DNA of 64,000 nucleotides, from the NCBI GenBank assembly GCA_002422795.1, contig DITJ01000104.1, positions 15,324 to 79,323 on the forward strand. The letters run 5' to 3'. This document shows, piece after piece, positions 5,876 through 61,479 of this stretch. The notes below the pieces were generated by a model. It made no database searches. It worked only from the letters and a program-made list of their open reading frames with translations, and was not told where the DNA came from. The position numbers and the translations under genes were made by a program. How positions within the stretch are numbered: position 1 is the first letter of the stretch; each line of letters begins with the position of its first letter. This DNA is from Alphaproteobacteria bacterium UBA6187. Its GTDB lineage: Bacteria; Pseudomonadota; Alphaproteobacteria; Rickettsiales; UBA6187.

Positions 5876-6058
5876 TATAGCGTTTCCGCTTTTCATTTCT
5901 ACGTCGTCATTCTTCGGACTCACAAAATTAGCGAACCTTCGATGTGATGAAATATAAGTAAACTTCATTTCATCACATCTTGGTTTCACCTAGGTTTACT
6001 AGGCTAAAATTTTGTTCACCTCGAATTCCTAGTAGAAATGAAAAGCGGAAACGCTATA
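5876..6058. repeat. 183-bp palindromic element with perfect 27-bp terminal inverted repeats
   Basis: tatagcgtttccgcttttcatttctac (5876-5902) is the exact reverse complement of 6032-6058. There is an inner hairpin gatgtgatgaaat...atttcatcacatc. A diverged half copy lies at 51192-51264. Confidence 0.85.
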
Positions 6059-12757: not shown

Positions 12758-12912
12758 TGAAAGAAATAACTATTGAACTACCAACTTCTTTGCTTCGCCG
12801 TGCGCAGGAAGCAACTGGTAAAAATATTGATGATACACTGATTGCTGCTTTAGAAGCTGTAATAAACACTAAATTAACTAATAAAGATAAAAAAATAATA
12901 GGAATAAAATGA
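12757..12912 (+). CDS. 51-aa VapB-like (ribbon-helix-helix type) antitoxin-like micro-ORF
   Basis: MKEITIELPTSLLRRAQEATGKNIDDTLIAALEAVINTKL... Its ATG overlaps the capD-like stop (TGATGA), and its TGA overlaps the purH ATG (ATGA). It falls below the 60-aa ORF-track cutoff. Confidence 0.5.
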   Translation: MKEITIELPTSLLRRAQEATGKNIDDTLIAALEAVINTKLTNKDKKIIGIK

Positions 12913-14459
12913 AAATCCAGCGCGCCTTACTCTCCGTTTCCGATAAAACCGGCCTTATTGAACTTGCCAGGTTTTTAGATAAAAAGAACATAGAATTACT
13001 TTCCACAGGTGGCACCGCGAAGGCTATAAGGGACGCGGGCATAAAAGTGAAAGATGTATCAGAACATACCGGTTTTCCTGAAATAATGGATGGCAGGGTA
13101 AAAACTTTGCACCCAAAAATTCATGGCGGCCTGCTTGCCTGCCTTGATGACAAAGAACATGTACAGGCCATGCAGGAGAATGATATTTTTCCAATAGGGC
13201 TTGTAATTGTGAATCTTTATCCATTTGAAGAAACAGTAAAACGCAACGCCCCTTTTCATGAGGCTATTGAAAATATCGATATTGGCGGTCCTTCAATGGT
13301 TCGCTCCGCTGCGAAGAACCATGCTTTCACTACCGTTATTACCGATAGCAGCGATTATGATAGTTTAAAACGCGAAATCGAAGCGAATGAAGGCGCAACC
13401 AGCCTGGAGTTTAAGAAGAAGATGGCTGCAAAAGCATTTTCCCGCACAGCTTCTTATGATGCATCTATCAGCAACTGGTTTGCAAAACAGGTTGGTGATA
13501 ATTTTCCAAAAACCCTTACTGTTTCTGCAAAATTACGCCAGGATTTACGTTATGGCGAAAATCCGCACCAGGCAGCGGCATTTTATAGCTTTGATGATTC
13601 ATATGGTATCGGCTCGGCCCAGCAAATTCAGGGCAAGGAACTCAGCTATAATAATATTAATGATGCAGATGCGGCGCTTCAGCTTGTTTCAGAATTTGAA
13701 GACCCTGCGGCTGTTATAATTAAACATGCCAACCCATGCGGCGCGGCAATAGGCCGTGACTTGCTGGAAGCCTATGAAAGAGCGCTGGAATCAGACCCGG
13801 TTAGCGCATTTGGCGGAATTATTGCATTTAATGAGCCTATCGGCGAAGATGTGGCAGCGGCCCTTTCCAAAATGTTCGTAGAAGCTGTTATCGCCCCTTC
13901 AATAACCGAGCGGGCAAGAGAAATGCTTGCCGCCAAGAAAAACATGCGCGTATTATTGACTGGTAAAAAAACGCTTCTGAAGCGCGAATTAACTTATAAA
14001 TCCGTTGCAGGCGGGCTGCTTGTGCAGGAAAATGACTTTAATTTTGCCAATGAAAGTGAATTGCTTTGCGTTACAAAGCGCAAACCAACTGAAGATGAAA
14101 TGCGCGAACTTCTTTTCACATTCCGCGTTTGTAAGCATGTTAAGTCTAACGCAATAGTACTTTCAAAAAACAAAGCTACAATCGGTATTGGCGCAGGGCA
14201 AATGAGCCGTGTGGATTCAGTGCGCATTGCAGCAATGAAAGCCAGCGATAGCAAAACCAACCCTAACAGGGCGCAAGGCTCCGTGCTTGCATCTGATGCA
14301 TTCTTCCCATTCGCAGATGGCCTTTTAGAAGCTGCAAAAATCGGTGTAAAAGCTATAATCCAGCCAGGCGGCTCAGTGCGTGATGAAGAGGTAATCCAAG
14401 CTGCCAATGCTAATAATATTGCGATGGTGTTTACCGGGATGCGGCATTTTAAGCATTAG
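12909..14459 (+). CDS. purH: Bifunctional AICAR transformylase / IMP cyclohydrolase
   Basis: 516 aa full-length PurH pattern (ALLSVSDKTGL, GGTAKA, MDGRVKTLHP, YNNINDADAA, FFPFADG). Confidence 0.96.
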   Translation: MKIQRALLSVSDKTGLIELARFLDKKNIELLSTGGTAKAIRDAGIKVKDVSEHTGFPEIMDGRVKTLHPKIHGGLLACLDDKEHVQAMQENDIFPIGLVIVNLYPFEETVKRNAPFHEAIENIDIGGPSMVRSAAKNHAFTTVITDSSDYDSLKREIEANEGATSLEFKKKMAAKAFSRTASYDASISNWFAKQVGDNFPKTLTVSAKLRQDLRYGENPHQAAAFYSFDDSYGIGSAQQIQGKELSYNNINDADAALQLVSEFEDPAAVIIKHANPCGAAIGRDLLEAYERALESDPVSAFGGIIAFNEPIGEDVAAALSKMFVEAVIAPSITERAREMLAAKKNMRVLLTGKKTLLKRELTYKSVAGGLLVQENDFNFANESELLCVTKRKPTEDEMRELLFTFRVCKHVKSNAIVLSKNKATIGIGAGQMSRVDSVRIAAMKASDSKTNPNRAQGSVLASDAFFPFADGLLEAAKIGVKAIIQPGGSVRDEEVIQAANANNIAMVFTGMRHFKH

Positions 14460-14575: not shown

Positions 14576-14694
14576 ATTAGCTACGTTTCCAGCAGCAAGA
14601 GATCCTTCAGAAATATGTCATTCTGATGTAAGGCGGCATAAAATTTATCGTTATGCTTCCTCGGCTGATGCCCTTGCTTTGCTGCCCCCTTTTA
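14576..14694. repeat. Direct repeat copy 1 (decayed gene fragment) flanking the dioxygenase gene
   Basis: attagctacgtttcc.gcagcaaga.atccttc...ggcggcataaaatttatcgttatgcttcc.cggctgatgcccttgctttgctgccccc recurs at 15941-16060 with small indels. Confidence 0.8.
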
Positions 14695-14760
14695 AGCCCA
14701 ACTGCATATATCCTTCTGGCAACGCCTGAACTTATCGCTAAAATTATCCACTGACAAAGT

Positions 14761-15660
14761 TCAATAAACGCCCTCGGTATTACAAACAAACCTCCCGAAC
14801 CGACTTACCAGCACACGCCCGCAATCATTTTTTATCATGGCCCTGCCATGAAGGTAGCGGATATTATCTATTACTAGTAAATCCTGTGCCTGCCATACAT
14901 GCTTATACATAATACTATCATGTATATCTATAAGCTCATTTATCATGGAGTTTGGTATTATTTCGCCGTCGCCGAAGAAAACCCGGTTGGAAGCTTTTGT
15001 ATATACAATTTTATCCTGATATCCTGGATGGGTGATTTCGGGAATATGCGCCAGCATTGCGTTTGCAAATACCTTATTGCCCCTTTTATTTTTTCGGACT
15101 GCCTCGGTAGTATAAAATAAATGTAAATCTTCGTTGTGCAGGCTATATTTTACGCCTTTGGCGTTGTCTAAAAAATTTTTCAGGGAGCCTATGTCATTTA
15201 CCAGGAATTCATTTTGCCAACGTGCTTTTTCCCAGTACATTTCATAGGTTATGCCGGTATTTTCAAAGCGTTTACGGATTTTTTCTGGGAGCAACCTAAA
15301 GAACTTCTCACCATCTACCAGGGTTGTTTCCCCTCCAGGTTCAGATGGCGGGCTAACGCACATAAAGAAACAAATTTCTGGTGGATTATTATTGGGCCTA
15401 TAACTACCTTCAGTGTGACCAAGTAAGGCATAATTTTTTGCAGTCACTTCTGTAGTATATTTATCGCCCCTTACAGAACTATTTTGTCGTGTAGCCACCA
15501 CATGGAAATTATTGCAGAAAACATTACTGAATTCTTCTAGTTTTTCAATATTAAAATCAAAGTCACGCAATAACACATACCCTTCATCATTAAGGATATT
15601 GAGGGTTTCGCTTAGGTTAATTGTATTAATGGGTTGTTTCTTTCTCTCTATCATAACCAC
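14761..15660 (-). CDS. Fe(II)/2-oxoglutarate dioxygenase, TauD/TfdA (clavaminate-synthase-like) family
   Basis: 299 aa with an H-x-E facial-triad motif (GHTEGSY) and a C-terminal DNIRYLHGR block, as in CAS/AsnO/VioC-type hydroxylases. Substrate unknown. Confidence 0.7.
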   Translation of the reverse strand: MVMIERKKQPINTINLSETLNILNDEGYVLLRDFDFNIEKLEEFSNVFCNNFHVVATRQNSSVRGDKYTTEVTAKNYALLGHTEGSYRPNNNPPEICFFMCVSPPSEPGGETTLVDGEKFFRLLPEKIRKRFENTGITYEMYWEKARWQNEFLVNDIGSLKNFLDNAKGVKYSLHNEDLHLFYTTEAVRKNKRGNKVFANAMLAHIPEITHPGYQDKIVYTKASNRVFFGDGEIIPNSMINELIDIHDSIMYKHVWQAQDLLVIDNIRYLHGRAMIKNDCGRVLVSRFGRFVCNTEGVY

Positions 15661-15940
15661 TATTGGAAATTGATAATTACCTAACTTAATAAAATATGCG
15701 ATAATCTTATGTCTTTCTACAAAACAAGGCTACTAAATTATGGAACAATACTTCCAACGGCAGCATATTTGCCGGATGTGGCTACACCACACGCCTGTAA
15801 CTGGCTGACACGGCCTCGTCAGACCTTATTATCTTCCGCACTCTCGGTAGTCCCTGATGCTCCAGCATTTGAGGTATAACACCCTTATCTTCCTGCGACT
15901 TTTCATTATTATCATCTCCAAATTTTATACTCCTGCCTGG

Positions 15941-16060
15941 ATTAGCTACGTTTCCGGCAGCAAGATATCCTTCCAAAATATGCCCTTCTGATGTAATGGC
16001 GGCATAAAATTTATCGTTATGCTTCCCCGGCTGATGCCCTTGCTTTGCTGCCCCCCTTTA
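15941..16060. repeat. Direct repeat copy 2 (part of a longer start-less reading frame on the minus strand)
   Basis: Same ~120-bp sequence as 14576-14694. On the minus strand it continues into ...GKHNDKFYAAITSEGHILEGYLAAGNVANPGRSIKFG... with no ATG and an upstream stop, so it looks like a gene remnant. Confidence 0.75.
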
Positions 16061-16086
16061 ATCCGCCGCCATGAGGGTAAACCTTA

Positions 16087-16233
16087 AAATGACCTCTGCA
16101 TAATGAGGATTTTTTTGTGTGAGTTCTAGGAACGCCCGCCCGCAGAACCTTAAGTAAATAGACGTACATGAGGATTTGAGGACGGACGTAACGAAGAAAT
16201 CACCAAAAAATACCGTTATGCAGAGGTCTTTTT
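16087..16233. mobile_element. ~147-bp MITE-like palindromic element
   Basis: Perfect 13-bp inverted termini gacctctgcataa (16091-16103) and ttatgcagaggtc (16216-16228), flanked by A/T runs. A second, truncated copy lies at 1-52. It has no coding capacity. Confidence 0.7.
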
Positions 16234-16245
16234 AAAGTAGTAGAG

Positions 16246-17145
16246 TTACTGAGCTTTAGCAAATAACCGGAAGAAATTTTCAGTAGTAACTTTTTTCACT
16301 TCCTCATAAGGAATATTTTTTAGTTCCGCGAGAAATTTTGCAGTATAGCTAGTGTAAGCAGGTTCATTAGGTTTACCGCGATGTGGCATTGGCGCAAGAT
16401 ATGGCGCATCAGTTTCCACCAGCAGGCTTGAAAGCGGTAGGTTCTTAACAATTTCCTGCAATTCAACGGCTTTTTTAAAGGTTATTATTCCTGAAATAGA
16501 AACATACATTCCAAGCTCAATCGCCGCCTCTGCCAGCTCTTTGCCAGTGCTGAAACAATGGATAAGCCCCGGGAATTTTCCTTTTCTCATTTCATTCTGA
16601 AGGATTTTTATAGTGTCATCATCAGCGCTGCGCGTATGCACAATAACCGGCAGCCCGGTTTCGCGGGAGGCTTTAATATGCTCAATGAAGCTACTGGTTT
16701 GTAGCTCACGCGGGGAATGTTCATAATAATAATCAAGCCCGGTTTCACCAAGGCCGATTACTTTCGGGTCTTTTGCGGCTGCAATTAACTCTTCCGAGGT
16801 AACTGGTGGTTCTTCCGCAACATTATTGGGATGCACACCCACAGAACACCAGATATTATCATAACGCTTTGCAATTGCTAAAATATCAGGAAACTCACGC
16901 ATACGTGTGCAGATAGTTTGCATATAGCCAACATCTAAAGATGCCGCATTTGCAACCACATCATCCAGGCGGCTGGAGAGTTCAGGGAAATTCAGATGGC
17001 AATGTGAGTCAACCAATACCAACCCCTTATCTTTGTAACACGTTGTCGCGCTTTGGCCTTTCGGTGCGCACGTAGATTCGGCTACGCTTACGCCCTCCTT
17101 GCCTTGCGCTCCTAGTGTTACTTCGCTAATGGGCTGGTATGGCAT
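16246..17145 (-). CDS. tatD: TatD-family metal-dependent deoxyribonuclease/hydrolase
   Basis: VDSHCHL plus downstream His/Glu/Asp blocks. The ORF carries an unusual ~45-aa N-terminal extension that coincides with a repeat element. An internal TTG start just before VLVDSHCHL is possible. Confidence 0.85.
   Translation of the reverse strand: MPYQPISEVTLGAQGKEGVSVAESTCAPKGQSATTCYKDKGLVLVDSHCHLNFPELSSRLDDVVANAASLDVGYMQTICTRMREFPDILAIAKRYDNIWCSVGVHPNNVAEEPPVTSEELIAAAKDPKVIGLGETGLDYYYEHSPRELQTSSFIEHIKASRETGLPVIVHTRSADDDTIKILQNEMRKGKFPGLIHCFSTGKELAEAAIELGMYVSISGIITFKKAVELQEIVKNLPLSSLLVETDAPYLAPMPHRGKPNEPAYTSYTAKFLAELKNIPYEEVKKVTTENFFRLFAKAQ
17028..17125. repeat. Palindromic-element copy lying in the 5' part of the tatD ORF
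   Basis: The reverse complement reads taggagcgcaaggcaaggagggcgtaagcgtagccgaatctacgtgcgcaccgaaaggccaaagcgcgacaac. It matches the core of the intergenic element at 32154-32277. Confidence 0.7.
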
Positions 17146-21897: not shown

Positions 21898-21958
21898 TCA
21901 GAAGAGCGCTCTTATGGGGTTCTATAATGTTTCAAGTATAGAACTGCCGTCATAGTAC

Positions 21959-22059
21959 CGTGTCATTGCGAGGCGCGAAGCGCCGTGGCAATCCAGAAAT
22001 ATAACACACCATATTTTTCTTTATTTCTGGATCGCCACGCCTTACGGCTCGCGATGACG
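21959..22059. repeat. Palindromic repeat of the gtcattgcgag...ctcgcaatgac family
   Basis: cgtgtcattgcgaggcgcgaagcgccgtggcaatccagaaat ... atttctggatcgccacgccttacggctcgcgatgacg. Other copies are at 56310-56417, 33152-33178 (half) and a degenerate one at 30833-30858. Confidence 0.85.
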
Positions 22060-22120
22060 TAAAATCGGCAATTTCAAGCTTGAAATACTATATAATGCTT
22101 ATGGGCAGGCTCAAGCATTA

Positions 22121-43501: not shown

Positions 43502-43901
43502 AACTATTCTTCTGGCATTGATAACAGCGTCCGGCATAGCTGTGGCTGCGGATAGGGACCCATTCTTGCCCTACACCTGGTCAACGCCTGCGGCAACAAC
43601 CGATACTAATAGTGCTAATATAAATACAGATAGTAAAATAAGCCCGTTAATTGATAAACCGCTTTCTGCATATACGGTAATCGGCGTGGTAGTATCGCCA
43701 AATGACGCCCTTGCAGTTTTAAAATCAAGGGATAAGCGTGAATATTTTGCCTATATCGGCGACCCGGTAGGTTCTGAAGGCGGTGTTTTAGAAACTATCA
43801 ACACAGAAGGTATATCCGTTGATATGGGTGGTAAGATTGTGACTTTAAAGGTAAGTAACCGATTTGAGATGCAAGATGAAAAACAAGATGAAAAGAAATA
43901 A
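43485..43901 (+). CDS. pilP: PilP-like periplasmic protein
   Basis: 138 aa with a signal peptide, then the RDPF motif (AADRDPFLPY) and a beta-rich C-terminus. There is no lipobox Cys. Confidence 0.65.
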   Translation: MKKLSKTILLALITASGIAVAADRDPFLPYTWSTPAATTDTNSANINTDSKISPLIDKPLSAYTVIGVVVSPNDALAVLKSRDKREYFAYIGDPVGSEGGVLETINTEGISVDMGGKIVTLKVSNRFEMQDEKQDEKK

Positions 43902-45444
43902 CCCAGTTGCAAAAATTTTGCTGCTGCTGCTCCTCGCTGGCTGCATAAAAGGCGAGAAAGCCTTTGATGGCAAGCTTATTGAGTCAAAATCCATGCTTGA
44001 CCAGAAGCAGTTCATTAAAGAAACCGAACCGAGGCTGGAAGAATCTGCCAAATACGGCCCGAAGATAACAGAAATTGATGAAACAAACATCCGTGAAGAA
44101 GCCAGCACGTTTATTAATAAAGAAGAGGCGCAAGGCTATGTTTCCGTGGGTGATGCGTCAGAAGCATTCCCAATTGATATAAATGTTGAAAATGTTGATA
44201 TCAGAACATTCACCCAGATGCTTTCAAAAATCACCGGTGTAAATTTTCTGGTATCTGATGAAGTAAGCGGCTATGTAACCGCAGAATTACACGATGTTCC
44301 ATGGCCTAATGCACTTGATTCAGTACTTAATTTAAAATCGCTTGCAAAGCATGTAGATAATAAAGCCAATGTTATCCGCATCCACAGCCAGGATTCAATA
44401 GTGAAACTTGAATCATTCGACCGCCAAAGACGCGAAGATTTGCAAAAAACCCTTGTACTTGAACGCGCTACCGAACCTTTCTATACAGAAGTATTTAAAC
44501 TGTTTTATTCTAAGCCTGATAAAATGAAGGCTGTTTTAGCAGAAGTACTTGGCATAGGCGCAGCTCCCACTGCAGGCTCGGCAATGCCGGTTGCCCAGAT
44601 AACCATAGATACCCGCATGAACCAACTTATTGTAAAAGCGCGCAAAGAAGATATGGAAATCGCAAAGAAACTTATCGCTAAACTTGATTCCCGCACTAAG
44701 CAAATATTCATCGAAGCTTTTATAGTTGAGGCAACCGATGACTTTGAAACTGCACTTGGTACGCGGCTGGGCGGTAACTTTACACAAGGTTTCACTAACC
44801 AGGGCAAAAACTTTAATGTGCGCAGCACTGGTCTTGCTGGCACAGCAGCAAATGCTGTTGCAGCTGGCGATACTTCTGCCACATTTACTAACATGTCTGC
44901 AATCAGCAAAACTGGCGTCACTAGTGGCATTGGTTTTCTTGCAGGCGTTGGCGACGCGGTTGACCTGAAATTTGAACTGAGTGCCTTAGAGAATAAAGGG
45001 CTTTCCAAAGTTATTTCCAACCCAAGGCTGTTCACCCTTGATAACCAGGAAGCTGTGATATTCCAAGGCACCCAGGTTCCTTACAGCACCACATCGGCAG
45101 ATGGTACAAAAATTGAATTTAAAGATGCTGGCTTAAAACTGGCCGTAACCCCAAGCGTTGTGGGTGATGGTAATTTAATGTTGGCGATTGCTGTTAATAA
45201 AGATACAGTAGACCTTACTCAGGCATTGCCGCCTATAACAAAAAGTACAATCACTACCAACCTTGTTACTAAAGACGGCTCAATAGTGGTAATTGGCGGT
45301 ATATATACGCAAACAAAAGCAGATGGCAGCGATAAAGTTCCCGGCCTTGGTGATATTCCGGTAGCTGGCAAACTATTCCGCCGCGATAATAATTCGAACT
45401 CTAAAAAAGAATTAATGATATTTATATCACCTAAGATTTTGTAG
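43876..45444 (+). CDS. pilQ: Secretin (PilQ-like) with lipoprotein signal peptide
   Basis: The C-terminal secretin domain has VPGLGDIPVAGKLFR...ELMIFISPKIL. The N-terminus MKNKMKRNNPVAKILLLLLLAGC carries a lipobox. The start is ambiguous (43864 TTG, 43876 or 43888 ATG). Confidence 0.85.
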   Translation: MKNKMKRNNPVAKILLLLLLAGCIKGEKAFDGKLIESKSMLDQKQFIKETEPRLEESAKYGPKITEIDETNIREEASTFINKEEAQGYVSVGDASEAFPIDINVENVDIRTFTQMLSKITGVNFLVSDEVSGYVTAELHDVPWPNALDSVLNLKSLAKHVDNKANVIRIHSQDSIVKLESFDRQRREDLQKTLVLERATEPFYTEVFKLFYSKPDKMKAVLAEVLGIGAAPTAGSAMPVAQITIDTRMNQLIVKARKEDMEIAKKLIAKLDSRTKQIFIEAFIVEATDDFETALGTRLGGNFTQGFTNQGKNFNVRSTGLAGTAANAVAAGDTSATFTNMSAISKTGVTSGIGFLAGVGDAVDLKFELSALENKGLSKVISNPRLFTLDNQEAVIFQGTQVPYSTTSADGTKIEFKDAGLKLAVTPSVVGDGNLMLAIAVNKDTVDLTQALPPITKSTITTNLVTKDGSIVVIGGIYTQTKADGSDKVPGLGDIPVAGKLFRRDNNSNSKKELMIFISPKIL

Positions 45445-50277: not shown

Positions 50278-51153
50278 ATGAAAATATCAAAACAAGCACT
50301 AGGTAAAGGACTTTCCGCATTAATCTCGACTGATGATGATGACTTTCAAACAGCAGAAAGATTGCAGCCACTGGAGATGCCTTTAAATTTATTGGTGGCT
50401 GGGAAATCGCAGCCAAGGGGGTATTTTGAAGAGAGTAGCTTGCAGGAGCTTGCTGAATCTATTAAGAAAAATGGAGTTATTCAGCCCATTTTGGTGAGGA
50501 AATTAAATGATATAAGCTATGAAATAATTGCTGGAGAGCGTCGTTTCCGCGCTTCAAAACTGGCCGGATTACAGACCATGCCTGTAATTATAAAAGAATT
50601 AGATAACCGGCAAGCATTGGAATTAGCCCTTATAGAAAATATCCAAAGAGAAAACCTTACTGCAATTGAAGAAGCTGAGGGGTATAAACGCCTACAGGAA
50701 GAATTTAACTACACGCAAGAGCAATTAGGTAATGTTTTAGGAAAAAGCCGTAGCCATGTAGCAAATATGCTGCGTTTATTAACCCTGCCGCAATCAATAA
50801 AAGATATGTTAAATTCCGGGTTGATTTCTATGGGGCATGCCAGGGTATTGGTGGGGGTGGAGGGTCCACAAGCATTAGCTGAAAGAATAGTTAATGAAGG
50901 GCTAAGTGTGCGTGATGCTGAAAAGTTTGCCAGCGGTAGTATGCATAGTCAAGTTACAGCAAAAGAGCGTCAACCGAGTCAGAAAAGAAATAACTCTACC
51001 GCATCTAGCGCGCAAAAGGATGAGGATTTATTGCTTATAGAAAGATCTTTATCAGATTTACTTGGTATGAAGATTTCTATTGAGGAAGATCGTGTTGTGC
51101 TTTACTACAACAATCTTACTGAACTAGATAAGATATTGCAAAGGATAGGTTAA
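50278..51153 (+). CDS. parB: Chromosome partitioning protein ParB
   Basis: 291 aa with the GERRFRA box and an HTH region (QEQLGNVLGKSRSHVANMLRLL). Confidence 0.94.
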   Translation: MKISKQALGKGLSALISTDDDDFQTAERLQPLEMPLNLLVAGKSQPRGYFEESSLQELAESIKKNGVIQPILVRKLNDISYEIIAGERRFRASKLAGLQTMPVIIKELDNRQALELALIENIQRENLTAIEEAEGYKRLQEEFNYTQEQLGNVLGKSRSHVANMLRLLTLPQSIKDMLNSGLISMGHARVLVGVEGPQALAERIVNEGLSVRDAEKFASGSMHSQVTAKERQPSQKRNNSTASSAQKDEDLLLIERSLSDLLGMKISIEEDRVVLYYNNLTELDKILQRIG

Positions 51154-51191
51154 TTGGCATTTCTATAATTCTGGCAATAATGTATACTTAT

Positions 51192-51264
51192 ATTTCATTA
51201 TGCAGAAGCTTCGCCAATTATGCAAGTCCGAAGAATAACAACATAGAAATGAAAATGAGTATAA
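51192..51264. repeat. Diverged half copy of the 5876-6058 palindromic element
   Basis: atttcattatgcagaagcttcgccaattatgcaagtccgaagaataacaacatagaaatgaaaatgagtata aligns with the reverse complement of 5876-5950. Confidence 0.6.
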
Positions 51265-51352
51265 AGCAGGAGAGGGTGCTTTTTTAGAGATTGCCTTACT
51301 GTTGATCTTGTTTTTCTTTCCAAGCAGCTAAATTTCCGCTATTGCTACTATC

Positions 51353-54300
51353 ATGACAACAGCACAGCTTCAAGCATCAGACCCGGCATATTCGGTATGG
51401 GTGGCGGCATCTGCCGGAACGGGAAAAACCACCGTGCTTACCTCACGTGTGCTGCGCCTGCTGCTTAATAATACCAACCCGGGGAAAATTCTGTGCCTAA
51501 CCTACACAAAGGCAGGTGCTGCGGAAATGGAATGCCGCATTAAAGCCAGATTATGCCGCTGGGTAACATTGCCGGAAAATGAGCTTATCGTAGAATTAAC
51601 GAAGCTTACCACTGAAATTCCAAGCGCAGATACAATAAAGCTCGCCCGCAAATTATTCCTTGAAACGCTGGATACGCCTGACGGGATTAAAATCCAGACC
51701 ATCCACTCATTCTGCCAGGGATTAATGCGCCGTTTTCCGCTTGAGGCGGGGATTGTGCCGCATTTTAAGGTTATGGACGATAAAACCTCAAGAGAATTAT
51801 TAAAAGAAGCACGCTTAAAGCTCCTTTCTGATTCAGATATTTATACGGCAGAAATAAAAGCCTCCATTACAAATATTTTCAGGCGAATTCGCGAAGGCAC
51901 GTTTTCAGAAGTAATTGAAGGTATAATAAGTGACCGTGGTAAACTGGGCAAGGCAATCGCCCAATCTGGTGGGGTAGAGGGGCTAAAAAAAGCAATATTC
52001 GGATTGCTTGAAGTGGATGAGGGGCAAGATGAATATGCCGTCCTTAAAAACGCCATGCAGGAGGCAAATTTTAACAGGAAAGAATTGCATGCAACAGCTA
52101 TTGGGCTTTTAAATGAAAAAGGCGTGACTTTTATAGAGCGCGGAAAAATTATATGTAACTGGCTGGAGCAGGACGAAAAAGGCAGGCTGGAAAATTTCCA
52201 CTCATATAAACTTGCATATCTTACTAAAGAAGAGGCGCCAAGGGCGGCATTGCTTCCTGCAAAAACCAATATACCGCCTGAACCGATAGACTTTGAAAAA
52301 GAGCGTATATGCAGGCTGATTAGAGCCATAAAAAGAACCAGGCTGGCGCTTCTTTCCAGTAGCATGGTAGATATTGCCTGCTCGCTCTTGGCATTATACG
52401 ATATAGAAAAATCCGGCAAGGCATATCTTGATTATAACGACCTTATCACAAAAGCCGAAAACCTGCTTTCTGGCACAGATATTGCACCATGGGTGCTTTA
52501 TAAACTAGATGGCGGCATAGACCACTTGCTGCTCGATGAAGCGCAGGATACCAGCCTGGCACAGTGGCATATCATAGATTCCTTATGCTCGGAATTTTTT
52601 ACAGGCAGTGGCGCGCGCGATGTGGAGCGGACAATTTTCGTGGTAGGAGATGAAAAGCAATCAATATTCAGCTTCCAGGGGGCGGCTCCGCATATATTCA
52701 ATAAAATGCGCTATAAATTCCAGGAGCGCGCCGAGCAGGCAGGCAAGCAATGGCTGAATGTAAGGCTGGATGAATCTTTCCGCTCTGCGCCTGTGGTGTT
52801 GCGGGCGGTGGATGCGGTATCGCAGGGATTGGGGATTAGGACTTGGGGATTAGGGAATCATAATAATCTGGAATCAACTTCCTTTAATATTAACGCGGCT
52901 TCCTCGCCACCTCCCAATCCCCAATCCCCAATCCCCAACTTACATATTCCCCACCATAAAACCCTGCATGGCAAAGTGGAAATATGGCCTTTAATCGAAC
53001 GGCAACAAGAAGAAGAGCAAAGTGCCGGCTGGGTGATGCCGCTGGAATATAAGGATAAACAGAACCCCCCGAAAATTCTTGCTGAAAAAATTGCCAGCAC
53101 CATAAAGAAGTGGCTTGATAATGGCCGCATAATTGAAGCAACGGGGCAGAAAGTGCGTGCAGGCGATATAATTATATTGCTGCGCAAAAGAACCAACATG
53201 GCGGATAATATTATCTCCAGTTTGAAAAGCCGCAATGTTGCCGTGGCAGGGCATGATAGGCTTATAATAACAGAGCATATTGCGGTTATGGATTTAATGG
53301 CGTTGGGTAACTTCCTGTTGCTGCCCGAAGATAGTCTGTCGCTCGCCTGCGTTTTAAAATCACCCTTAATCGGCTTTTCGGAAGAAGATTTATTTCAAGT
53401 TGCGTATGGAAGGGATAAAAAAAGCCTATGGCAGGCTTTGAAAGAGCGCGCAAAAGATGCGCAAAACCCGCCGCATTTCCAGCATGCAGTGGAGTATCTT
53501 TCCAATCTGCTGAATAAGGTTGATTATTTTACTCCATTTAAGCTTTATTGTTATATATTAGAGGCTATCGGCGGCAGGAAAAAGCTGGTGCAGCGCCTGG
53601 GCGAGGAAATAAATGATCCCGTGGATGAATTCCTTTCTTTGAGCCTTGAATTTGAAAAATCCCATGCCCCTTCCTTGCAGGGTTTTTTAAACTGGCTGGA
53701 ATCCGGCAAATCAGAAATAAAACGCGATATGGAACAAAGTGGCACAGATGCTGTAAGGGTGATGACAGTGCATGGCTCTAAGGGGCTAGAAGCGCCTATA
53801 GTCATAATGCCTGATACCACTACCGTACCCGAAACGAAAATGAAAATTTTCTGGCATGAGGATGATAACGCAAACATACTTCTCTGGCCGGGCGGTTCGC
53901 ATAACGAGGAAGAATTCTGCGATGCTATAAAAGAAAACAAAAAAATGGAAGAAAAGCAGGAATATTACCGCCTGCTTTATGTAGCCATGACCCGCGCTAA
54001 ATTTGAGCTATATGTAGCAGGTTCGGTAGGTAAAAAAAGCAGGCCGGATTGGTGCTGGTATGATGTTATATATTCCGCACTTGATAATATTAGACTTCCA
54101 CGGAAACAGGGTTTTGGGGAGGCAGATGCGCGAAGCGAGTATCACAGAACCGTAAGCGTACAGGGCGTACGTGCGGATTCGAGAAACGCAGCGACAAGCG
54201 AGCTGCCCACCAAAACCCTGTTTCCGTGGAAGTCTATTGCGGAAAAAGATGCAGATGGCATCTTACGCTTAAGCGGCGGCAATCCTGCGATTATAAAAGA

Positions 54301-54949
54301 ATCGCAAATAAAGCAGGCCGCTGTTTTTGCCCCGCTGCCTGCATATTTATTGAATAAGCCTGAAAGTGAGCCAAACCCAACGCGCCCCCTTACCCCATCA
54401 AAAATTGAAGGGGAGCAAGGCGCGGAGGTTTATTCGCCGTCCAGCCGGGCAAAGCTTATGGAAGGCAAGATTATCCATAGCCTGCTGGAATTCCTGCCTG
54501 ATATATTTGAGGCAAACCGCATGGATAAAGGGCTTGAATTTTTAAGAAAGAAGTTTCCCACCGCTGAAAATGTGGAGATAGAAAGCATACTGGCGAACTT
54601 GCTTGCAATAATGTGCAGGGACGATCTAAAGCATGTATTTAGCGAAACATCCCGCGCCGAAGTGCCGGTTATAGGAATCGCTGGCGGCATGGTTATATCG
54701 GGCCGTATCGACAGGCTAGGCATCACAGATGATAAGGTAATAATAGTTGATTACAAAACCGGGCGCATACCGCCTAAATCAATTTCAGCTATAAATAGGG
54801 CTTATATTAAGCAGATGTCTGTTTATAAGGATATCATTAAGGAAATTTACCCTGCCAAGCAAGTGGAATGTTACCTTATATGGACAGAAGGTGCGGTAGT
54901 TTTCAAATTACCTGAAGAAACCCTTGGTAAACAGGCGAGTGTAGTGTAA
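51353..54949 (+). CDS. addA: Double-strand-break repair helicase-nuclease AddA (UvrD-like helicase plus C-terminal RecB-type nuclease)
   Basis: 1198 aa with Walker A AASAGTGKTTVL, LLLDEAQDTS, and the C-terminal nuclease motif GRIDRLG...IIVDYKTG. It is followed by trxA, as in many alphaproteobacteria. It contains two palindromic inserts. Confidence 0.9.
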   Translation: MTTAQLQASDPAYSVWVAASAGTGKTTVLTSRVLRLLLNNTNPGKILCLTYTKAGAAEMECRIKARLCRWVTLPENELIVELTKLTTEIPSADTIKLARKLFLETLDTPDGIKIQTIHSFCQGLMRRFPLEAGIVPHFKVMDDKTSRELLKEARLKLLSDSDIYTAEIKASITNIFRRIREGTFSEVIEGIISDRGKLGKAIAQSGGVEGLKKAIFGLLEVDEGQDEYAVLKNAMQEANFNRKELHATAIGLLNEKGVTFIERGKIICNWLEQDEKGRLENFHSYKLAYLTKEEAPRAALLPAKTNIPPEPIDFEKERICRLIRAIKRTRLALLSSSMVDIACSLLALYDIEKSGKAYLDYNDLITKAENLLSGTDIAPWVLYKLDGGIDHLLLDEAQDTSLAQWHIIDSLCSEFFTGSGARDVERTIFVVGDEKQSIFSFQGAAPHIFNKMRYKFQERAEQAGKQWLNVRLDESFRSAPVVLRAVDAVSQGLGIRTWGLGNHNNLESTSFNINAASSPPPNPQSPIPNLHIPHHKTLHGKVEIWPLIERQQEEEQSAGWVMPLEYKDKQNPPKILAEKIASTIKKWLDNGRIIEATGQKVRAGDIIILLRKRTNMADNIISSLKSRNVAVAGHDRLIITEHIAVMDLMALGNFLLLPEDSLSLACVLKSPLIGFSEEDLFQVAYGRDKKSLWQALKERAKDAQNPPHFQHAVEYLSNLLNKVDYFTPFKLYCYILEAIGGRKKLVQRLGEEINDPVDEFLSLSLEFEKSHAPSLQGFLNWLESGKSEIKRDMEQSGTDAVRVMTVHGSKGLEAPIVIMPDTTTVPETKMKIFWHEDDNANILLWPGGSHNEEEFCDAIKENKKMEEKQEYYRLLYVAMTRAKFELYVAGSVGKKSRPDWCWYDVIYSALDNIRLPRKQGFGEADARSEYHRTVSVQGVRADSRNAATSELPTKTLFPWKSIAEKDADGILRLSGGNPAIIKESQIKQAAVFAPLPAYLLNKPESEPNPTRPLTPSKIEGEQGAEVYSPSSRAKLMEGKIIHSLLEFLPDIFEANRMDKGLEFLRKKFPTAENVEIESILANLLAIMCRDDLKHVFSETSRAEVPVIGIAGGMVISGRIDRLGITDDKVIIVDYKTGRIPPKSISAINRAYIKQMSVYKDIIKEIYPAKQVECYLIWTEGAVVFKLPEETLGKQASVV
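52825..52938. repeat. Heptad-word hairpin embedded in-frame in addA
   Basis: The 5' arm is GGATTGG GGATTAG GACTTGG GGATTAG GGAAT. The 3' arm is CCTCCCA ATCCCCA ATCCCCA ATCCCCA AC. It is translated as ...GLGIRTWGLGNHNNLESTSFNINAASSPPPNPQSPIPN... The boundaries are approximate. Confidence 0.7.
54095..54232. repeat. 138-bp palindromic element embedded in-frame in addA
   Basis: Perfect 23-bp inverted termini cttccacggaaacagggttttgg (54095-54117) and ccaaaaccctgtttccgtggaag (54210-54232). It spans exactly 46 codons, starts on a codon boundary, and encodes LPRKQGFGEADARSEYHRTVSVQGVRADSRNAATSELPTKTLFPWK. Confidence 0.85.
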
Positions 54950-56428: not shown

Positions 56429-57286
56429 CTACAAACAGCTTTTCAACCCCTCCCTATAAGTCGGATATTTAAGCTGCACACCTAATTCCTGTTTGATGCG
56501 TTCATTGCTAACGCGCCTATTGCTTGCCCAGAAACTTTTTGCCATTTCTGAGAGTTCCGCCTGCTCAAATTCCACAAGTGGCGGAGGGGTTATTCCAAGT
56601 AGCTTTGCCGCATATTCAACCACCTGGGCCTGCGGTGCAGGCTCGTCATCCGCGCAGTTATATACACGCCACGGGTTTGGTTTATTTATAGAGCCTCGCA
56701 AGATTCCCGCAATATCTTCAACATGTATACGCGAAAACACCTGCCCTTCCTTATGCACTCTGTGCGCTTTTCCCGCTTTTAATTCATCAATTGCACTACG
56801 ACCTTTGCCGTAAATTCCAGAAAGGCGGAATATATGCACAGGCAAGCCGCAGTCGAGCCACGCCTCTTCCGCATCGGCTCGCCTCTGGTTGCGCCCATGA
56901 GGCGGATTTACAGGCGTTTCTTCACTGACCCATGCACCATTATGATCGCCATATACACCAGTGGTAGAAAGATAACCAAACCATTCCAGGTTTGGGAGTG
57001 ATTTTAGGTCAGCCAGGTGGTGGTGGAGTACAGGGTCTAGGGGCTGGGGGCTGGAGGCTGGGGGAGCCGAATGCAAAATATGCGTTACTCCTCCCAAATC
57101 CCAAACTTCCTGAAGGGGTAAATCATTATCAAATATATAAGCGGTGATGCCCATGGCGCGCAGGCGTTCGCATTTATCAGATGTGCGGCAAGTGCCAGAA
57201 ACGCGCCAGCCCTCGAGCAGCAGTTGCTTTGCTAAAATTAAAGCAGAATATCCGAGGCCGAAGCAGAAGAGGTGGGGCATGAGCAA
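56429..57286 (-). CDS. NAD(P)-binding SDR/epimerase-family protein
   Basis: 285 aa with the Rossmann-like N-terminus CFGLGYSALILAKQLLLEGWRVSGTCR and YLSTTGVYGD. It carries a G-rich heptad tract at 57033-57106. Confidence 0.75.
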   Translation of the reverse strand: MLMPHLFCFGLGYSALILAKQLLLEGWRVSGTCRTSDKCERLRAMGITAYIFDNDLPLQEVWDLGGVTHILHSAPPASSPQPLDPVLHHHLADLKSLPNLEWFGYLSTTGVYGDHNGAWVSEETPVNPPHGRNQRRADAEEAWLDCGLPVHIFRLSGIYGKGRSAIDELKAGKAHRVHKEGQVFSRIHVEDIAGILRGSINKPNPWRVYNCADDEPAPQAQVVEYAAKLLGITPPPLVEFEQAELSEMAKSFWASNRRVSNERIKQELGVQLKYPTYREGLKSCL

Positions 57287-57509: not shown

Positions 57510-58244
57510 ATGTTTGCTTCACATACACAAAGAAAAAAAGCCTTCACTTTAATTGAGCTCTCGGTTGTTATTGTAATAATCGGGCTTATCGTTGCGGGAA
57601 TAGTTTCTGGAACGAACCTTGTACGACAAGCAAAGTTAATTGCTATAACTAAAGATGTAAATAGGTATGTAGCTTCAATAAATAGCTTTAAGCTATTATA
57701 TAATGCACTTCCTGGGGATATAAAAAATGCATCTTCGTATTTCCCCGGCGCTAATGATGGAAATGGCAATAACTTTATTAATTGGCAAGGCACAGACTAT
57801 GAGGATAAATTGGCGTGGCAACATCTTGCATTAGCAAACTTGATAAATGGCAAATATAGTGGTTCAGGTTCTGGGCCTCCATATGTTGCAGGGGTTACTG
57901 TTCCATCTGGTCCATTACCCAGAAGTGCGTATTGGCTTACAGAGGCTGTTGCATCAAATCCTTTTTCTGACATATGGGGATATGGTGGAACTAATATACA
58001 GTTTGCCGCCCAAATAGGAAGCGGTAGTAGTAATTATCCAATTGGGCCAATAATAACAGCTATAGAAGCATATGCTATAGATAAAAAAATTGATGATGGG
58101 CTTCCAAATAAAGGTACTTTTATGGCTCGTAATGGCGTGTTTGCAGTAAATCCATGTACAAGCTCCTCAGCCCCTTACACATATATAACTTCATCTAGTG
58201 ATCTATCATGTAGGATATTTTTCTTTATAAGTTCAAAACGATAG
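57510..58244 (+). CDS. Type IV pilin / pseudopilin-like protein, paralogue of 707-1450 (244 aa)
   Basis: Leader MFASHTQRKKA then FTLIELSVVIVIIGLIVAGIV, with Ala rather than Gly at -1 and Glu at +5. There is a C-terminal Cys pair (NPC...LSC). It shares the WQHLALANLINGKYSG and IDKKIDDGLPNKGTF blocks with the other paralogue. Confidence 0.8.
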   Translation: MFASHTQRKKAFTLIELSVVIVIIGLIVAGIVSGTNLVRQAKLIAITKDVNRYVASINSFKLLYNALPGDIKNASSYFPGANDGNGNNFINWQGTDYEDKLAWQHLALANLINGKYSGSGSGPPYVAGVTVPSGPLPRSAYWLTEAVASNPFSDIWGYGGTNIQFAAQIGSGSSNYPIGPIITAIEAYAIDKKIDDGLPNKGTFMARNGVFAVNPCTSSSAPYTYITSSSDLSCRIFFFISSKR

Positions 58245-58297: not shown

Positions 58298-58613
58298 TTA
58301 AGCCGCCAGCTTTTTCTTTAATAACTCATTAAGCACCTGCGGATTAACCTTGCCGCCCGAAGCTTTCATAACTTGCCCCACAAAGAAGCCAAATAATTTA
58401 TCCTTACCGCTTCTATATTCAGCAACTTTATCCTGGTTCGCTGCCATTATTTCTTCGATAACTTTCTCGATTGTGCCAGTATCAGTAACCAGTTTTAATC
58501 CCTGTTATTCAACAATCTGAGCGGCAGATTTGCCGGTTTCAATATGGTATAGAATACATCTTTGGCCATTTTGCTGGAGATAGTATTATCTGTGATAAGG
58601 CTCAGCAATCCAT
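58298..58613 (-). pseudogene. Decayed duplicate of the gatB 3' end
   Basis: About 315 bp align with 59931-60246 at roughly nine of ten positions by eye. The fragment keeps its own stop (…LKKKLAA*) but has an internal stop or frameshift near 58490. The track ORF 58495-58698 is a chimera that ends in GatB-like [19 protein letters not shown]. Confidence 0.8.
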
Positions 58614-58721
58614 CCTTTTCAAGAGAACTAACCGCCATTTTACTAAAGAAGAAATTCTGACAAGCAGTTATTTCTTTATATGGAACATGGCTTGCCATTT
58701 TCTTTTATACCCATGATAAAT

Positions 58722-59915
58722 TTATTGCGGATGGTCTTTTTTAAAAGAAGTAGCAAGCAGAAGGAATGTTGCTGAAAGAATACCAATTGGTATCAGCCAA
58801 TCCTGCCAGACACTGTATGTTAATAAGCCTATTATAAAATAATTGGTAAATAACGCACAGGAAAATGCCATCATTGTATGATTCTGGTATTTCTTTGCAA
58901 TATGTTGTAGCGTTACGATAAGAAATGCGGTGTAGATAAAAAGCCCAAAAACGCCAAGTTCTAACCAGACCTGCAAAATAAAATTATGCGGGGAGTTTGG
59001 AATTGCTGGCCTGCCATCTAGGAAAGAATCATGTTGCTCTACTGAAAAATTTTGCGAAGCATTGAATCCCCAGCCAAAGAAGTGCTTTTGCAGGGCGTGT
59101 TTTGCTGTATAATCCCATATATAAAGCCTGTAGTCTGAGGCCGCATCGGGTACAATCGGAACATTACCTATTAGTTTCTGTGAATTTAAAATGCTTGCAA
59201 GCATAATAACCAGCATCACACCAATGGCCGCAATCACAGCAAATACTTTTAAAGCACGCTTTCCTTTATAATACACAATCGGAAAAATTACCAGGCCGCT
59301 AATCGAAAATCCCAATATTGAAGATAAACTTTCCATGCGCAAAACTGTTGCAAGCACTGCAAAAAATAGCAGTAATGCAGATTTACATCTTTTAGTTACC
59401 CATAAATAGCATATTGGTGCCCAGCTTAGTAAGCTAATAACGCACGAACCTTCGTTCGTGAAATAAATATTGTTATACCAAAAGAGAGCTATATTCTTAA
59501 AATTATATGACAGTTCATTATTAACCAATATCAGGGCAGCTATTATGCCGGCAAGCAGCGATTCTAATATTAATTGCCGTTCATAATTTCCTGAGGATTG
59601 CGCGGAAGAAAATAACCCAAGGGCGCCAATGAAGAATAGCACCCTTAATATCCATAATTTTAAGGATTCATCAGGTTTTATTGTCCATATTATGCTTATA
59701 AGGCTATATGCAATTAATAGGATGATTACTTTATTTACATCAGACTCAGCCCAGATATTCTTTAAGTTGCCATTATATATATAAATACAAGCAGCAAAGG
59801 CGGCTACAATTGCAAACAACCGTTCGGCTGGTGCATTTAGTATAATTATTGCCAGCATTGGCAATATAAATACAGCAACGGAATTTATTACAAAAAGTAA
59901 ACGTGCGATTTTCAT
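58722..59915 (-). CDS. O-antigen ligase / Wzy_C-family polytopic membrane protein
   Basis: 397 aa with about 10-12 TM helices and a Wzy_C-like block (FGWGFNASQNF ... SPHNFILQVWLELGVFGLF). It starts 15 nt after the gatB stop on the same strand. Confidence 0.75.
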   Translation of the reverse strand: MKIARLLFVINSVAVFILPMLAIIILNAPAERLFAIVAAFAACIYIYNGNLKNIWAESDVNKVIILLIAYSLISIIWTIKPDESLKLWILRVLFFIGALGLFSSAQSSGNYERQLILESLLAGIIAALILVNNELSYNFKNIALFWYNNIYFTNEGSCVISLLSWAPICYLWVTKRCKSALLLFFAVLATVLRMESLSSILGFSISGLVIFPIVYYKGKRALKVFAVIAAIGVMLVIMLASILNSQKLIGNVPIVPDAASDYRLYIWDYTAKHALQKHFFGWGFNASQNFSVEQHDSFLDGRPAIPNSPHNFILQVWLELGVFGLFIYTAFLIVTLQHIAKKYQNHTMMAFSCALFTNYFIIGLLTYSVWQDWLIPIGILSATFLLLATSFKKDHPQ

Positions 59916-59930
59916 ATTTGCCTTAATAAA

Positions 59931-61388
59931 CTATGAGGCTAGTTTTTTCTTTAACAAATCATTAAGTACCTGCGGATTAACTTTGCCGCCCGAAGCTTTC
60001 ATGGCTTGACCTACAAAGAAGCCGAATAATTTATCCTTACCGCTTCTATATTCATCAACCTTATCCTGGTTAGCAGCCATTATTTCTTCGATGATTTTCT
60101 CGATTGCGCCAGTATCGGTAACCTGCTTTAAGCCCTGCTCTTCAACAATCTGGCTCGCTGATTTGCCGGTTTCAAACATAGTATCGAATACATCTTTAGC
60201 CATTTTGCCGGAGATAGTATTATCTGTGATAAGGCTCAGCAATCCACCTAATTCCTTTGCGGAAACTGGTGAGTTTTCAATATTCTCCCCATTTTTATTA
60301 AGGCGCGCAAATAATTCGGCAGTAATCCAGTTTGCTGCCATTTTAGCATCATGGCCTTTTGCAACTTCTTCAAAATATTTCGCAGTTTCTTTATCAGCCA
60401 CCAGCACACTTGCGTCATATTTAGAAAGCCCCATCGCGTTTATATAGCGCTCTTTCTTATCATCAGGAAGTTCTGGCAAATCTTTGCGTAATTTATTGAT
60501 AAATTCTTCGGAAATTTCCAGAGGCAGAAGGTCTGGGTCTGGGAAATAGCGGTAATCATGCGCATCTTCTTTGGTTCGCATGGTGCGGGTTTCGCATTTG
60601 TTAGCATCAAACAGCCTGGTTTCCTGGGCAATTGTACCGCCACTTTCATAGGCTTCAACATGGCGGTTGGCTTCATAAGTTATTGCCTGCTGCATAAAGC
60701 GCATAGAGTTCAGGTTTTTTATTTCGCAACGCGTGCGCAGCTCAGTGCTACCAACCGGGCGCACCGAAACATTAGCATCGCAGCGCATAGAACCTTTTTC
60801 CATATCACCATCGCATGTGCCAAGATAACGCATGATAGTGCGCAGCTTCTTCAAATATTCCATGGCCTCTTCTGCTGATCGCATATCCGGCTTGGATACA
60901 ATTTCCATTAGCGCAATACCAGCGCGGTTTAGATCGATAAATGAAGAATCTGGTGATTGGTCATGCATCGATTTTCCGGCATCCTGTTCAAGATGGATAC
61001 GTTCCACACCAATCGAACGTGAAGTGCCATCCTTCATATCAATTATAATAGTGCCTTCGCCAACGATAGGATCGGAAAACTGGCTGATCTGGTAGCCTTG
61101 CGGCAAATCGGCATAGAAATAATTTTTACGGTCGAATACCGAATGGTGGTTGATTTTTGCTTTAAGGGCAAGGCCGCTGCGCACTGCTTGCTTCACGCAT
61201 TCTGCGTTTAAAACCGGCAGCATTCCAGGCATAGCGGCATCTACCAGGGATACCTGGCTATTAGGTTCACCACCGAACAAAGTTGATGCACCGGAAAATA
61301 ATTTTGATTTAGAGGTTATTTGCGCATGAACCTCAAGCCCGATTACAATTTCCCAGTTGCCTGTGTTGCCTTTTATTATTTGTGTCAT
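59931..61388 (-). CDS. gatB: Asp/Glu-tRNA amidotransferase subunit B
   Basis: 485 aa with [12 protein letters not shown] at the N-terminus, full-length GatB. Confidence 0.96.
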
Positions 61389-61399
61389 TTTCTTTCCTT

Positions 61400-61479
61400 A
61401 GAGAATGTAAGAATATAAGAGTGTGAGAGTGTAAGTAAAATATTATTAACACTTACATTCTTACACTCTTACATTCTAC
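61400..61479. repeat. Octad-word hairpin between gatA and gatB
   Basis: The 5' arm is AATGTAAG AATATAAG AGTGTGAG AGTGTAAG and has no C. The 3' arm is CTTACATT CTTACACT CTTACATT and has no G. Confidence 0.75.

Follow-up and report, generated by a model that had tools for sequence, protein, structure and literature searches.

The 3' end of the gatB gene occurs twice in a stretch of 64,000 nucleotides (nt) from Alphaproteobacteria bacterium UBA6187 (Rickettsiales; GenBank assembly GCA_002422795.1, contig DITJ01000104.1, positions 15,324 to 79,323 of the forward strand), and this whole stretch is referred to as the window throughout this paper. The two copies lie on either side of a single gene, which encodes a membrane protein of 397 amino acids (aa) of the Wzy_C (O-antigen ligase/polymerase) family. 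Insertion or recombination at the end of gatB is the best reading of this arrangement, and the repeat is not a duplication made on the spot. The explanation favoured here, with a probability of about one half, is that DNA of a related bacterium, composed of a gatB tail, the Wzy_C gene and a spacer, was inserted by a crossover in a 37-nt core, whereby gatB was rebuilt and the resident tail was displaced.

The stretch at 58298-58612, here called copy A, is a direct repeat, in the same orientation, of the last 315 nt of gatB (59931-60246), here called copy B, and it was recovered by repeat finding, MAFFT alignment and self-BLAST. The initial annotation of this locus had put the similarity at about nine matches in ten by eye, and the alignment agrees: a base-by-base count gave 277 identities in 316 columns (87.7%), with 38 substitutions and one 1-nt gap, and self-BLAST of the window gave 88.7% over 309 nt (E=2e-110). 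It had also described the second copy as internally broken while keeping its own stop codon, and both points hold. Copy A retains the stop codon TAA at 58298-58300 and carries two lesions: one nucleotide is missing between 58543 and 58544, and an in-frame GAG has become TAA at 58505-58507. A 49-aa remnant open reading frame (ORF) within copy A (58298-58447) still matches the GatB_Yqey domain with E=1.5e-18. The similarity of the two copies stops at the stop codon, and the flanks past it are unrelated; there, the Wzy_C gene starts after copy B, and a convergent prepilin-type gene ends 53 nt from copy A. At the other edge, the similarity starts abruptly within the coding sequence with a 37-nt identical block, upstream of which the two copies are unrelated.

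The copies are separated by nothing but the Wzy_C gene and an unrelated stretch of 109 nt, and the insert measures 1.3 kb. The gene is, as annotated at first, the sole one in this interval and starts 15 nt past the gatB stop. The 109-nt spacer (58613-58721) showed no similarity to gatB above shuffled controls at either the DNA or the protein level, and, apart from an identical contig of the Logan assembly, L081, which is discussed below, nothing in the rest of the window or among the fetched loci matched it. The idea that the spacer is a very old gatB remnant, raised by short matches of the type 'VS..E' and 'ITA', was dropped after shuffle tests gave no signal. The fusion of the gatB fragment to about 85 bp of unrelated sequence in a 67-aa ORF, also reported earlier, was confirmed with 87 nt of spacer that do not resemble gatB. 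The chimeric ORF (58495-58698) has a partial GatB_Yqey match that, at 18 bits (E=0.0027), fails to reach the cutoff of 27, and it is a by-product; nothing points to a function.

The differences between the two tails fall mostly on third codon positions. The 38 substitutions are distributed over first, second and third codon positions as 8, 4 and 26, which places 68% of them at third positions, and the Nei-Gojobori method gave Sd=23, Nd=12, dS=0.47, dN=0.052 and omega=0.11 for copy A against copy B. Under free decay of a spare copy, about two thirds of the differences, over all codon positions, would be expected to be non-synonymous. In a codon simulation in which the gatB end was duplicated and one copy then decayed freely, none of 352 runs attained a third-position share as high as the one observed, or had as few as 13 amino-acid differences. 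The best fit was obtained with a copy A that evolved without constraint over only some 15-25% of its branch. The bias in codon position, the low omega and the rejection in simulation together indicate that the tails are diverged alleles, and not the result of on-the-spot duplication. Thus, the two tails are alleles that diverged in working gatB genes of separate, fairly close lineages and were later united, and copy A has been decaying since the tails came together in one genome.

These results bear directly on the proposal of the initial annotation, in which the Wzy_C gene was inserted with duplication of its target. Recombination at the end of gatB is upheld by the architecture of the locus, whereas duplication is contradicted by the codon-position counts, the omega value and the simulation. 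Direct repeats around a single gene and a visibly broken copy A do speak for an origin in which the gatB end was doubled when the gene was inserted, as a target-site or a tandem duplication, and the spare copy has since decayed; in view of the substitution pattern, such an origin is most improbable. Two copies whose similarity ends exactly at the stop codon are also not the expected outcome of a tandem duplication with subsequent deletion. Target duplications made by transposons are only a few bases long; the repeat at gatB is 315 nt long and 12% diverged, and neither a bracketing pair of inverted repeats nor a transposase ORF was found with it. Self-BLAST revealed no third gatB copy in the window that could have served as a source for gene conversion.

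The changes between copies A and B were polarised with seven relatives. Copy A carries replacements at invariant or near-invariant sites (G13S, D21Y, Q41L, A47T and A81V, in tail numbering), and the lineage-specific changes of copy B are limited to A31S and A104S, both at positions that vary among the relatives. Both disabling lesions and all conserved-site changes belong to copy A. The two tails are nevertheless closer to each other (88% nt identity) than to the tails of six relatives (72-79%), whose GatB proteins have 86-89% aa identity. None of the 120 best database matches for GatB has a tail nearer to copy A than copy B is.

The 37-nt block at the gene-internal edge is the longest identical run in the repeat, and the next longest runs measure 30 and 20 nt. 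If the first 12 codons had diverged as much as the other 93, their complete identity would arise by chance with P of about 0.004; this test was chosen post hoc. In the favoured explanation, an incoming segment made up of a donor gatB tail (copy B), the Wzy_C gene and the spacer of about 109 nt would have entered the 3' part of gatB by a crossover within the 37 nt that were identical in donor and recipient (60210-60246 and 58576-58612). The gatB gene would have been rebuilt with the incoming tail and would have stayed functional, and the resident tail, copy A, would have been pushed downstream, where it was useless and started to decay. The donor would have been a fairly close relative, as suggested by tails that are 88% identical with dS of about 0.47. 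The reaction may have been a site-specific event of the tyrosine-integrase type, with the integrase later deleted, or a single RecA crossover with a circular fragment. We infer both the kind of event, a site-specific or a homologous single crossover, and its position in the 37-nt block; copy A would then be the native tail.

The comparison with relatives is limited by their distance. In a GatB scan of a genome collection, the closest protein among the matches listed had 68% aa identity; the closest GatB proteins in a large protein database are those with 86-89% identity mentioned above, and a metagenome scan with a 29-nt gatB-tail pattern returned six contigs, the best of which is 79% identical in nucleotides, with no strain-level relative among them. 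Overall, the nearest gatB genes among the genomes and metagenomes searched are about 79-82% identical at the nt level. A search with tblastn for the GatB tail covered 90 fetched loci together with their flanks, to a maximum of 8 kb or the end of the contig; the 89 other loci with a match had one copy each, and only the window has two. No Wzy_C gene was found beside gatB among the related loci.

An intact second gatB-like gene in relatives, which would have spoken against an insertion, was thus absent from all 90 loci checked with their flanks. This result also bears on the view that two full gatB genes stood in tandem for a long time under selection, and that most of the second one was then deleted to leave copy A. 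Such a history would account for purifying selection on copy A within this very genome. It is quite improbable, since a second gatB tail was found in none of the 90 related loci with their flanks of up to 8 kb, the spacer upstream of copy A has no trace of gatB, and the end point of the deletion would need to coincide with the longest identical block.

Eight of the closest relatives keep ruvX together with gatC-gatA-gatB, although one of them, a short contig, shows only gatA-gatB. The genes that follow gatB differ among them. A convergent NeuB cluster, a convergent Amt ammonium transporter gene, a convergent MCP chemoreceptor gene or an unidentified ORF was found in this place, and in four contigs (L083, L086, L087 and L091) it is a co-directional gene for an AddA-like UvrD/PD-(D/E)XK helicase. 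In a ninth relative, the short metagenomic contig L094 with only the 3' end of gatB, the gatB stop is followed after about 53 nt by a co-directional epimerase-like gene, whose product is 67% identical in amino acids to that of window 56429-57286. These differences among relatives make the end of gatB a recurrent site of rearrangement, and the region downstream of gatB is a synteny breakpoint in the clade. The AddA-like gene of the window (51353-54949, plus strand; 58-68% aa identity) lies 5 kb from gatB on the opposite strand, after gidA-gidB-parA-parB, a position that implies inversion or rearrangement, with one breakpoint at the end of gatB. The epimerase-like gene stands on the copy A side in the window and after gatB in L094, which mildly favours a place for copy A in the older local context.

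The same neighbourhood can be read in the opposite direction. In this case, the native order would run from gatB, with its B tail, to the Wzy_C gene and the spacer. Copy A would be the cut end of a foreign piece, derived from a related bacterium, that comprised a partial gatB tail and the convergent prepilin-type gene and became attached beyond the Wzy_C gene through illegitimate or homology-facilitated illegitimate recombination. This is possible, though clearly less probable than arrival of the Wzy_C gene with copy B. The selection signature fits it equally well, as copy A would then have diverged in the working gatB of another lineage. The adjacent prepilin-type gene (57510-58244) has the lowest GC content at third codon positions (GC3, 0.233) of the genes measured in the window, it has no counterpart in any fetched relative, L094 with its epimerase-like gene straight after gatB included, and the region is a rearrangement hot spot. 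This reading would, however, require two illegitimate joints and leave the identical block exactly at the edge of the fragment as a coincidence (P of about 0.004), and no relative was found with gatB followed by a Wzy_C gene or by a convergent prepilin-type gene.

Support for the inner junctions comes from the independent Logan assembly of run SRR5323116, in which contig L081 (SRR5323116_449; 1657 nt) is 100% identical to the window. It starts within copy B, crosses the Wzy_C gene and the spacer and reaches the first bases of copy A, and its complete identity across the junctions indicates that both inner junctions are present in the reads. L081 ends at both sides inside the shared 37-mer and therefore begins and ends with identical sequence, as a k-mer assembler yields at such a repeat. 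The de Bruijn graph thus branches at the 37-mer, and the linear order past it rests on the original assembly alone, so an artefact in which the gatB tails of two strains were stitched together through the 37-mer has to be considered. It is scarcely probable at all: L081 joins the spacer to the start of the gatB fragment, so that the fragment junction exists in real DNA; copy A, with a frameshift and a nonsense codon, cannot be the working gatB tail of a second strain; and the alternative path through the graph would consist of a broken essential gene and a 1.6-kb circle. As a separate point, circularity detectors would call L081 circular, which recommends caution in automated plasmid or virus calling at the gatB locus.

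Several observations weigh against the insertion of a related gatB tail together with the Wzy_C gene. The distances to six relatives, compared between the body of gatB and the tails, do not discriminate the native tail, as neither tail is appreciably nearer to them than the other. The statistical test of the 37-nt block was applied only once the block had been noticed. Neither an empty site nor a donor context was found among the genomes and metagenomes searched, as no relative there is closer than about 79% nt identity in gatB. The only Wzy_C homologue with more than 31% identity is 45% identical and is placed between a uracil-DNA glycosylase gene and lpxC; since it does not stand beside gatB, a donor lineage in which gatB and the Wzy_C gene are adjacent is hypothetical. 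No integrase, excisionase, transposase or other mobility gene lies between the repeats, and the insert is only 1.3 kb long. Finally, no element that targets gatB was found in phage records, in viral contigs (among the matches listed) or in the literature searched.

Genomic islands and integrative elements are known to target the 3' ends of tRNA, tmRNA or protein genes; they are bounded by attL and attR repeats, and a replacement end borne by the element keeps the target gene intact. DLP12 at argU is an example of an element that targets a 3' end (PMC6379469). Such elements are defined by an integrase beside one att site, whereas the gatB insert has no integrase. The arrangement of icd, e14 and icdC in Escherichia coli K-12 and its origin by site-specific integration have been described (PMC13626634; PMC6379469; both citing Hill et al., 1989). 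In e14/icd (and phage 21), as proposed for gatB, the insert supplies the 3' end of an intact housekeeping gene and the original end is stranded at the far side; at both loci, the repeat opens inside the coding sequence with an identical stretch and reaches the stop codon, and its differences are mostly synonymous. Measurement of the icd/icdC repeat gave 165 nt with 12 differences, distributed over the codon positions as 1/0/11, with an identical start of 11 nt; after the stop codon, the similarity fades save for a few short patches.

The two systems differ in other respects. The e14 element is 15 kb long and carries intE and xisE near an att site, whereas the gatB insert has a single cargo gene in 1.3 kb and lacks a recombinase. 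The repeats measure 315 nt at gatB and 165 nt at icd, with a divergence of 12% and 7%, respectively; the stranded gatB copy, unlike that of icd, is already disabled, and excision has been documented for e14. The lack of an integrase between the repeats means that the gatB structure is not a current member of the e14 type and is either a look-alike or a decayed remnant. A single crossover with a circular molecule (Campbell-type integration) also gives direct repeats of the homologous segment around an insert, and in homology-facilitated illegitimate recombination, DNA of a relative that is anchored in a conserved gene brings in an adjacent non-homologous gene. These processes are normally followed by experiment and not read from scars, they do not in themselves predict a start at the longest identical block, and no transfer route is evident at gatB. 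The kind of structure, in which a 3' end is replaced by an insert and the other end is stranded, is already known; new are gatB as the target, the one-gene insert and the lack of a recombinase. The locus is an ordinary but clean recombination scar at a synteny breakpoint.

Some records encountered in the search for phage-borne gatB tails are worth mentioning in their own right. The Komagataeibacter phage phiKM1 was tried as a carrier of a gatB tail and was rejected, since the sequence in question is host flank, with gatB followed by a tRNA-Ser gene and an integrase gene. The record, a 'complete phage genome' (LC644974.1, L097), ends at 50325-51977 in an unannotated 3' part of host gatB, tRNA-Ser and integrase; to judge from this order, phiKM1 probably targets the tRNA gene beside gatB, and the record seems to include bacterial flank. 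In viral contigs, no integrase-linked gatB tail was seen among the matches listed, and two odd fusions of tape-measure-like and Gat sequences appeared. In IMG/VR contig L100 (1624-2919), a tape-measure-like N-terminal part with an LQGDEF/LRS motif is in frame with a C-terminal part of GatA, and a full gatB comes next; in L101 (5773-6195), a similar N-terminal part with the same motif is in frame with a 53-aa GatB tail fragment. These fusions, in unrelated contigs, may be chimeric assemblies or real recombination scars.

A more far-reaching idea is that the gatB tail, the Wzy_C gene and the spacer form a minimal integrase-free cassette, in which the replacement 3' end of an essential gene serves as portable homology. 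We regard it as doubtful. If true, recombination between the flanking repeats would release a 1.6-kb circle, a transferred circle could re-enter gatB of a related cell by a single RecA crossover, and each re-entry would rebuild gatB and regenerate the repeat-flanked structure. Two observations are compatible with the idea without proving it, namely the identical ends of L081 and a second repeat-flanked one-gene insert in the window (14576-16064). In the latter, a direct repeat with 92% identity over 124 nt (14576-14698 and 15941-16064), whose copies are spaced by about 1365 nt, encloses one gene of the TauD/TfdA-like dioxygenase type (14761-15660, minus strand); the neighbours of this gene are purH (12909-14459) and a tatD-like gene (16246-17145). 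This 124-nt repeat is non-coding, with stops in all six frames.

The protein encoded between the gatB repeats belongs to the Wzy_C family by a Pfam match well above threshold (PF04932, E=7.9e-20, 71.6 bits against a cutoff of 31.7, residues 183-328) and by the conserved His-containing motif of the periplasmic loop. In an alignment of 10 homologues, R263, E319 and G321 are invariant and P306/H308/P309/H310 near-invariant, and the conserved P-H-N...W-L-E-L-G motif (W317-L-E-L-G321) is kept. A catalytic role of conserved His and Arg loop residues is known in WaaL and PglL, and these residues may have such a role in the 397-aa protein. An AlphaFold model is all-helical, with about 18 helices, pLDDT (predicted local distance difference test) of 77 and pTM (predicted template modelling score) of 0.81; Foldseek found nothing below E=0.1 for the model in the PDB, and phmmer found no match for the protein there. 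No family was assigned by NCBIfam, and none of these searches placed the protein as a ligase, a polymerase or a pilin glycosylase.

The composition of the Wzy_C gene is ordinary. A comparison with its surroundings, proposed with the initial annotation as a check, did not mark the gene as foreign: its GC content is 36.8% in a window of 40.6%, and its GC3 of 0.337 lies inside the range of the other measured genes in the window (0.23 to 0.48), which fits a closely related donor. The placement of the gene at the tail of the gatCAB cluster, also suggested at that stage, agrees with its position and with the 15-nt gap. Its ATG is preceded by AAGG, and no terminator-like site was found on the minus strand between gatB and the Wzy_C gene; together with the short gap, these features suggest that the gene is probably co-transcribed with gatCAB.

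The Wzy_C family takes in WaaL O-antigen ligases, Wzy polymerases and the pilin O-glycosylases (O-oligosaccharyltransferases) PglL and PilO/TfpO. The Wzy_C gene is convergent with the prepilin-type gene, and the window also has a secretin gene (43864-45444). As a mere lead from gene neighbourhood, the Wzy_C gene may be linked to pilin glycosylation.

The features of the locus are collected in Table 1. The product of the prepilin-type gene has, besides its Pfam match, the prepilin N-terminal domain of NCBIfam. Rfam and tRNA scans of the window found nothing, and no terminator-like fold was found after copy A.

Table 1. Positions of the gatB repeat, its insert and the neighbouring genes in the window.
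Feature	Positions	Strand	Remarks
37-nt identical block, copy B side	60210..60246	-	Gene-internal edge of the repeat; proposed crossover core
37-nt identical block, copy A side	58576..58612	-	Same sequence as 60210-60246
Copy B	59931..60246	-	Functional gatB 3' 315 nt plus 1 nt; proposed replacement tail arriving with the insert
Copy A	58298..58612	-	Decayed fragment (pseudogene) of a gatB 3' end, stranded downstream; retains a stop codon
Spacer, 109 nt	58613..58721	-	Unrelated sequence from the Wzy_C stop to copy A; its last 87 nt start the chimeric ORF
Chimeric ORF, 67 aa	58495..58698	-	29 spacer codons (87 nt), 23 gatB-frame codons and an out-of-frame run
Wzy_C gene, 397 aa	58722..59915	-	O-antigen ligase/polymerase family membrane protein; sole cargo between the repeats
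gatB, 485 aa	59931..61388	-	Intact; last conserved gene of gatC-gatA-gatB; Pfam GatB_N E=8.9e-121, GatB_Yqey E=2e-54
gatA, 488 aa	61480..62946	-	Homologous Amidase-family gene in this position in all relatives
gatC, 95 aa	63046..63333	-	Counted from an internal ATG; 95-aa GatC in this position in relatives
Prepilin-type gene, 244 aa	57510..58244	+	Convergent, ends 53 nt from the copy A stop; Pfam N_methyl E=4e-6
SDR/epimerase-like gene	56429..57286	-	On the copy A side; directly after gatB in the metagenomic relative L094

Other repeated sequences were noted in and around these genes. The 91-nt spacer between gatA and gatB (61389-61479, minus strand) forms a long near-perfect hairpin of GUAAGA-like repeats, with a minimum free energy of -32.8 kcal/mol and z=-6.8 relative to shuffled sequences. 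The two genes abut or overlap in the closest relatives, and the spacer may be a small palindromic element inserted within the operon. Self-BLAST also revealed palindromic intergenic stretches at 16081-16238, 54091-54236 and 21920-22095, and dispersed short repeats, of which 16196-16233 equals 7-44, and 5890-5969 and 17030-17114 are repeated in inverted orientation at 51176-51255 and 32179-32264, respectively. These elements suggest a family of small repeated elements in the genome.

For sequence analysis in general, the locus illustrates that a 'duplicated gene end' need not be a duplication. Analysis by codon position tells imported alleles from local copies, and the same test is usable on other duplicated gene ends. 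In practical terms, direct repeats of 315 nt break short-read assemblies at gatB, and in the cell they could delete the Wzy_C gene by recombination. If the favoured explanation is right, the gatB locus would be a case in nature in which a gene for surface polysaccharide passed from one bacterium to a related one and joined an essential translation operon that is left undamaged.

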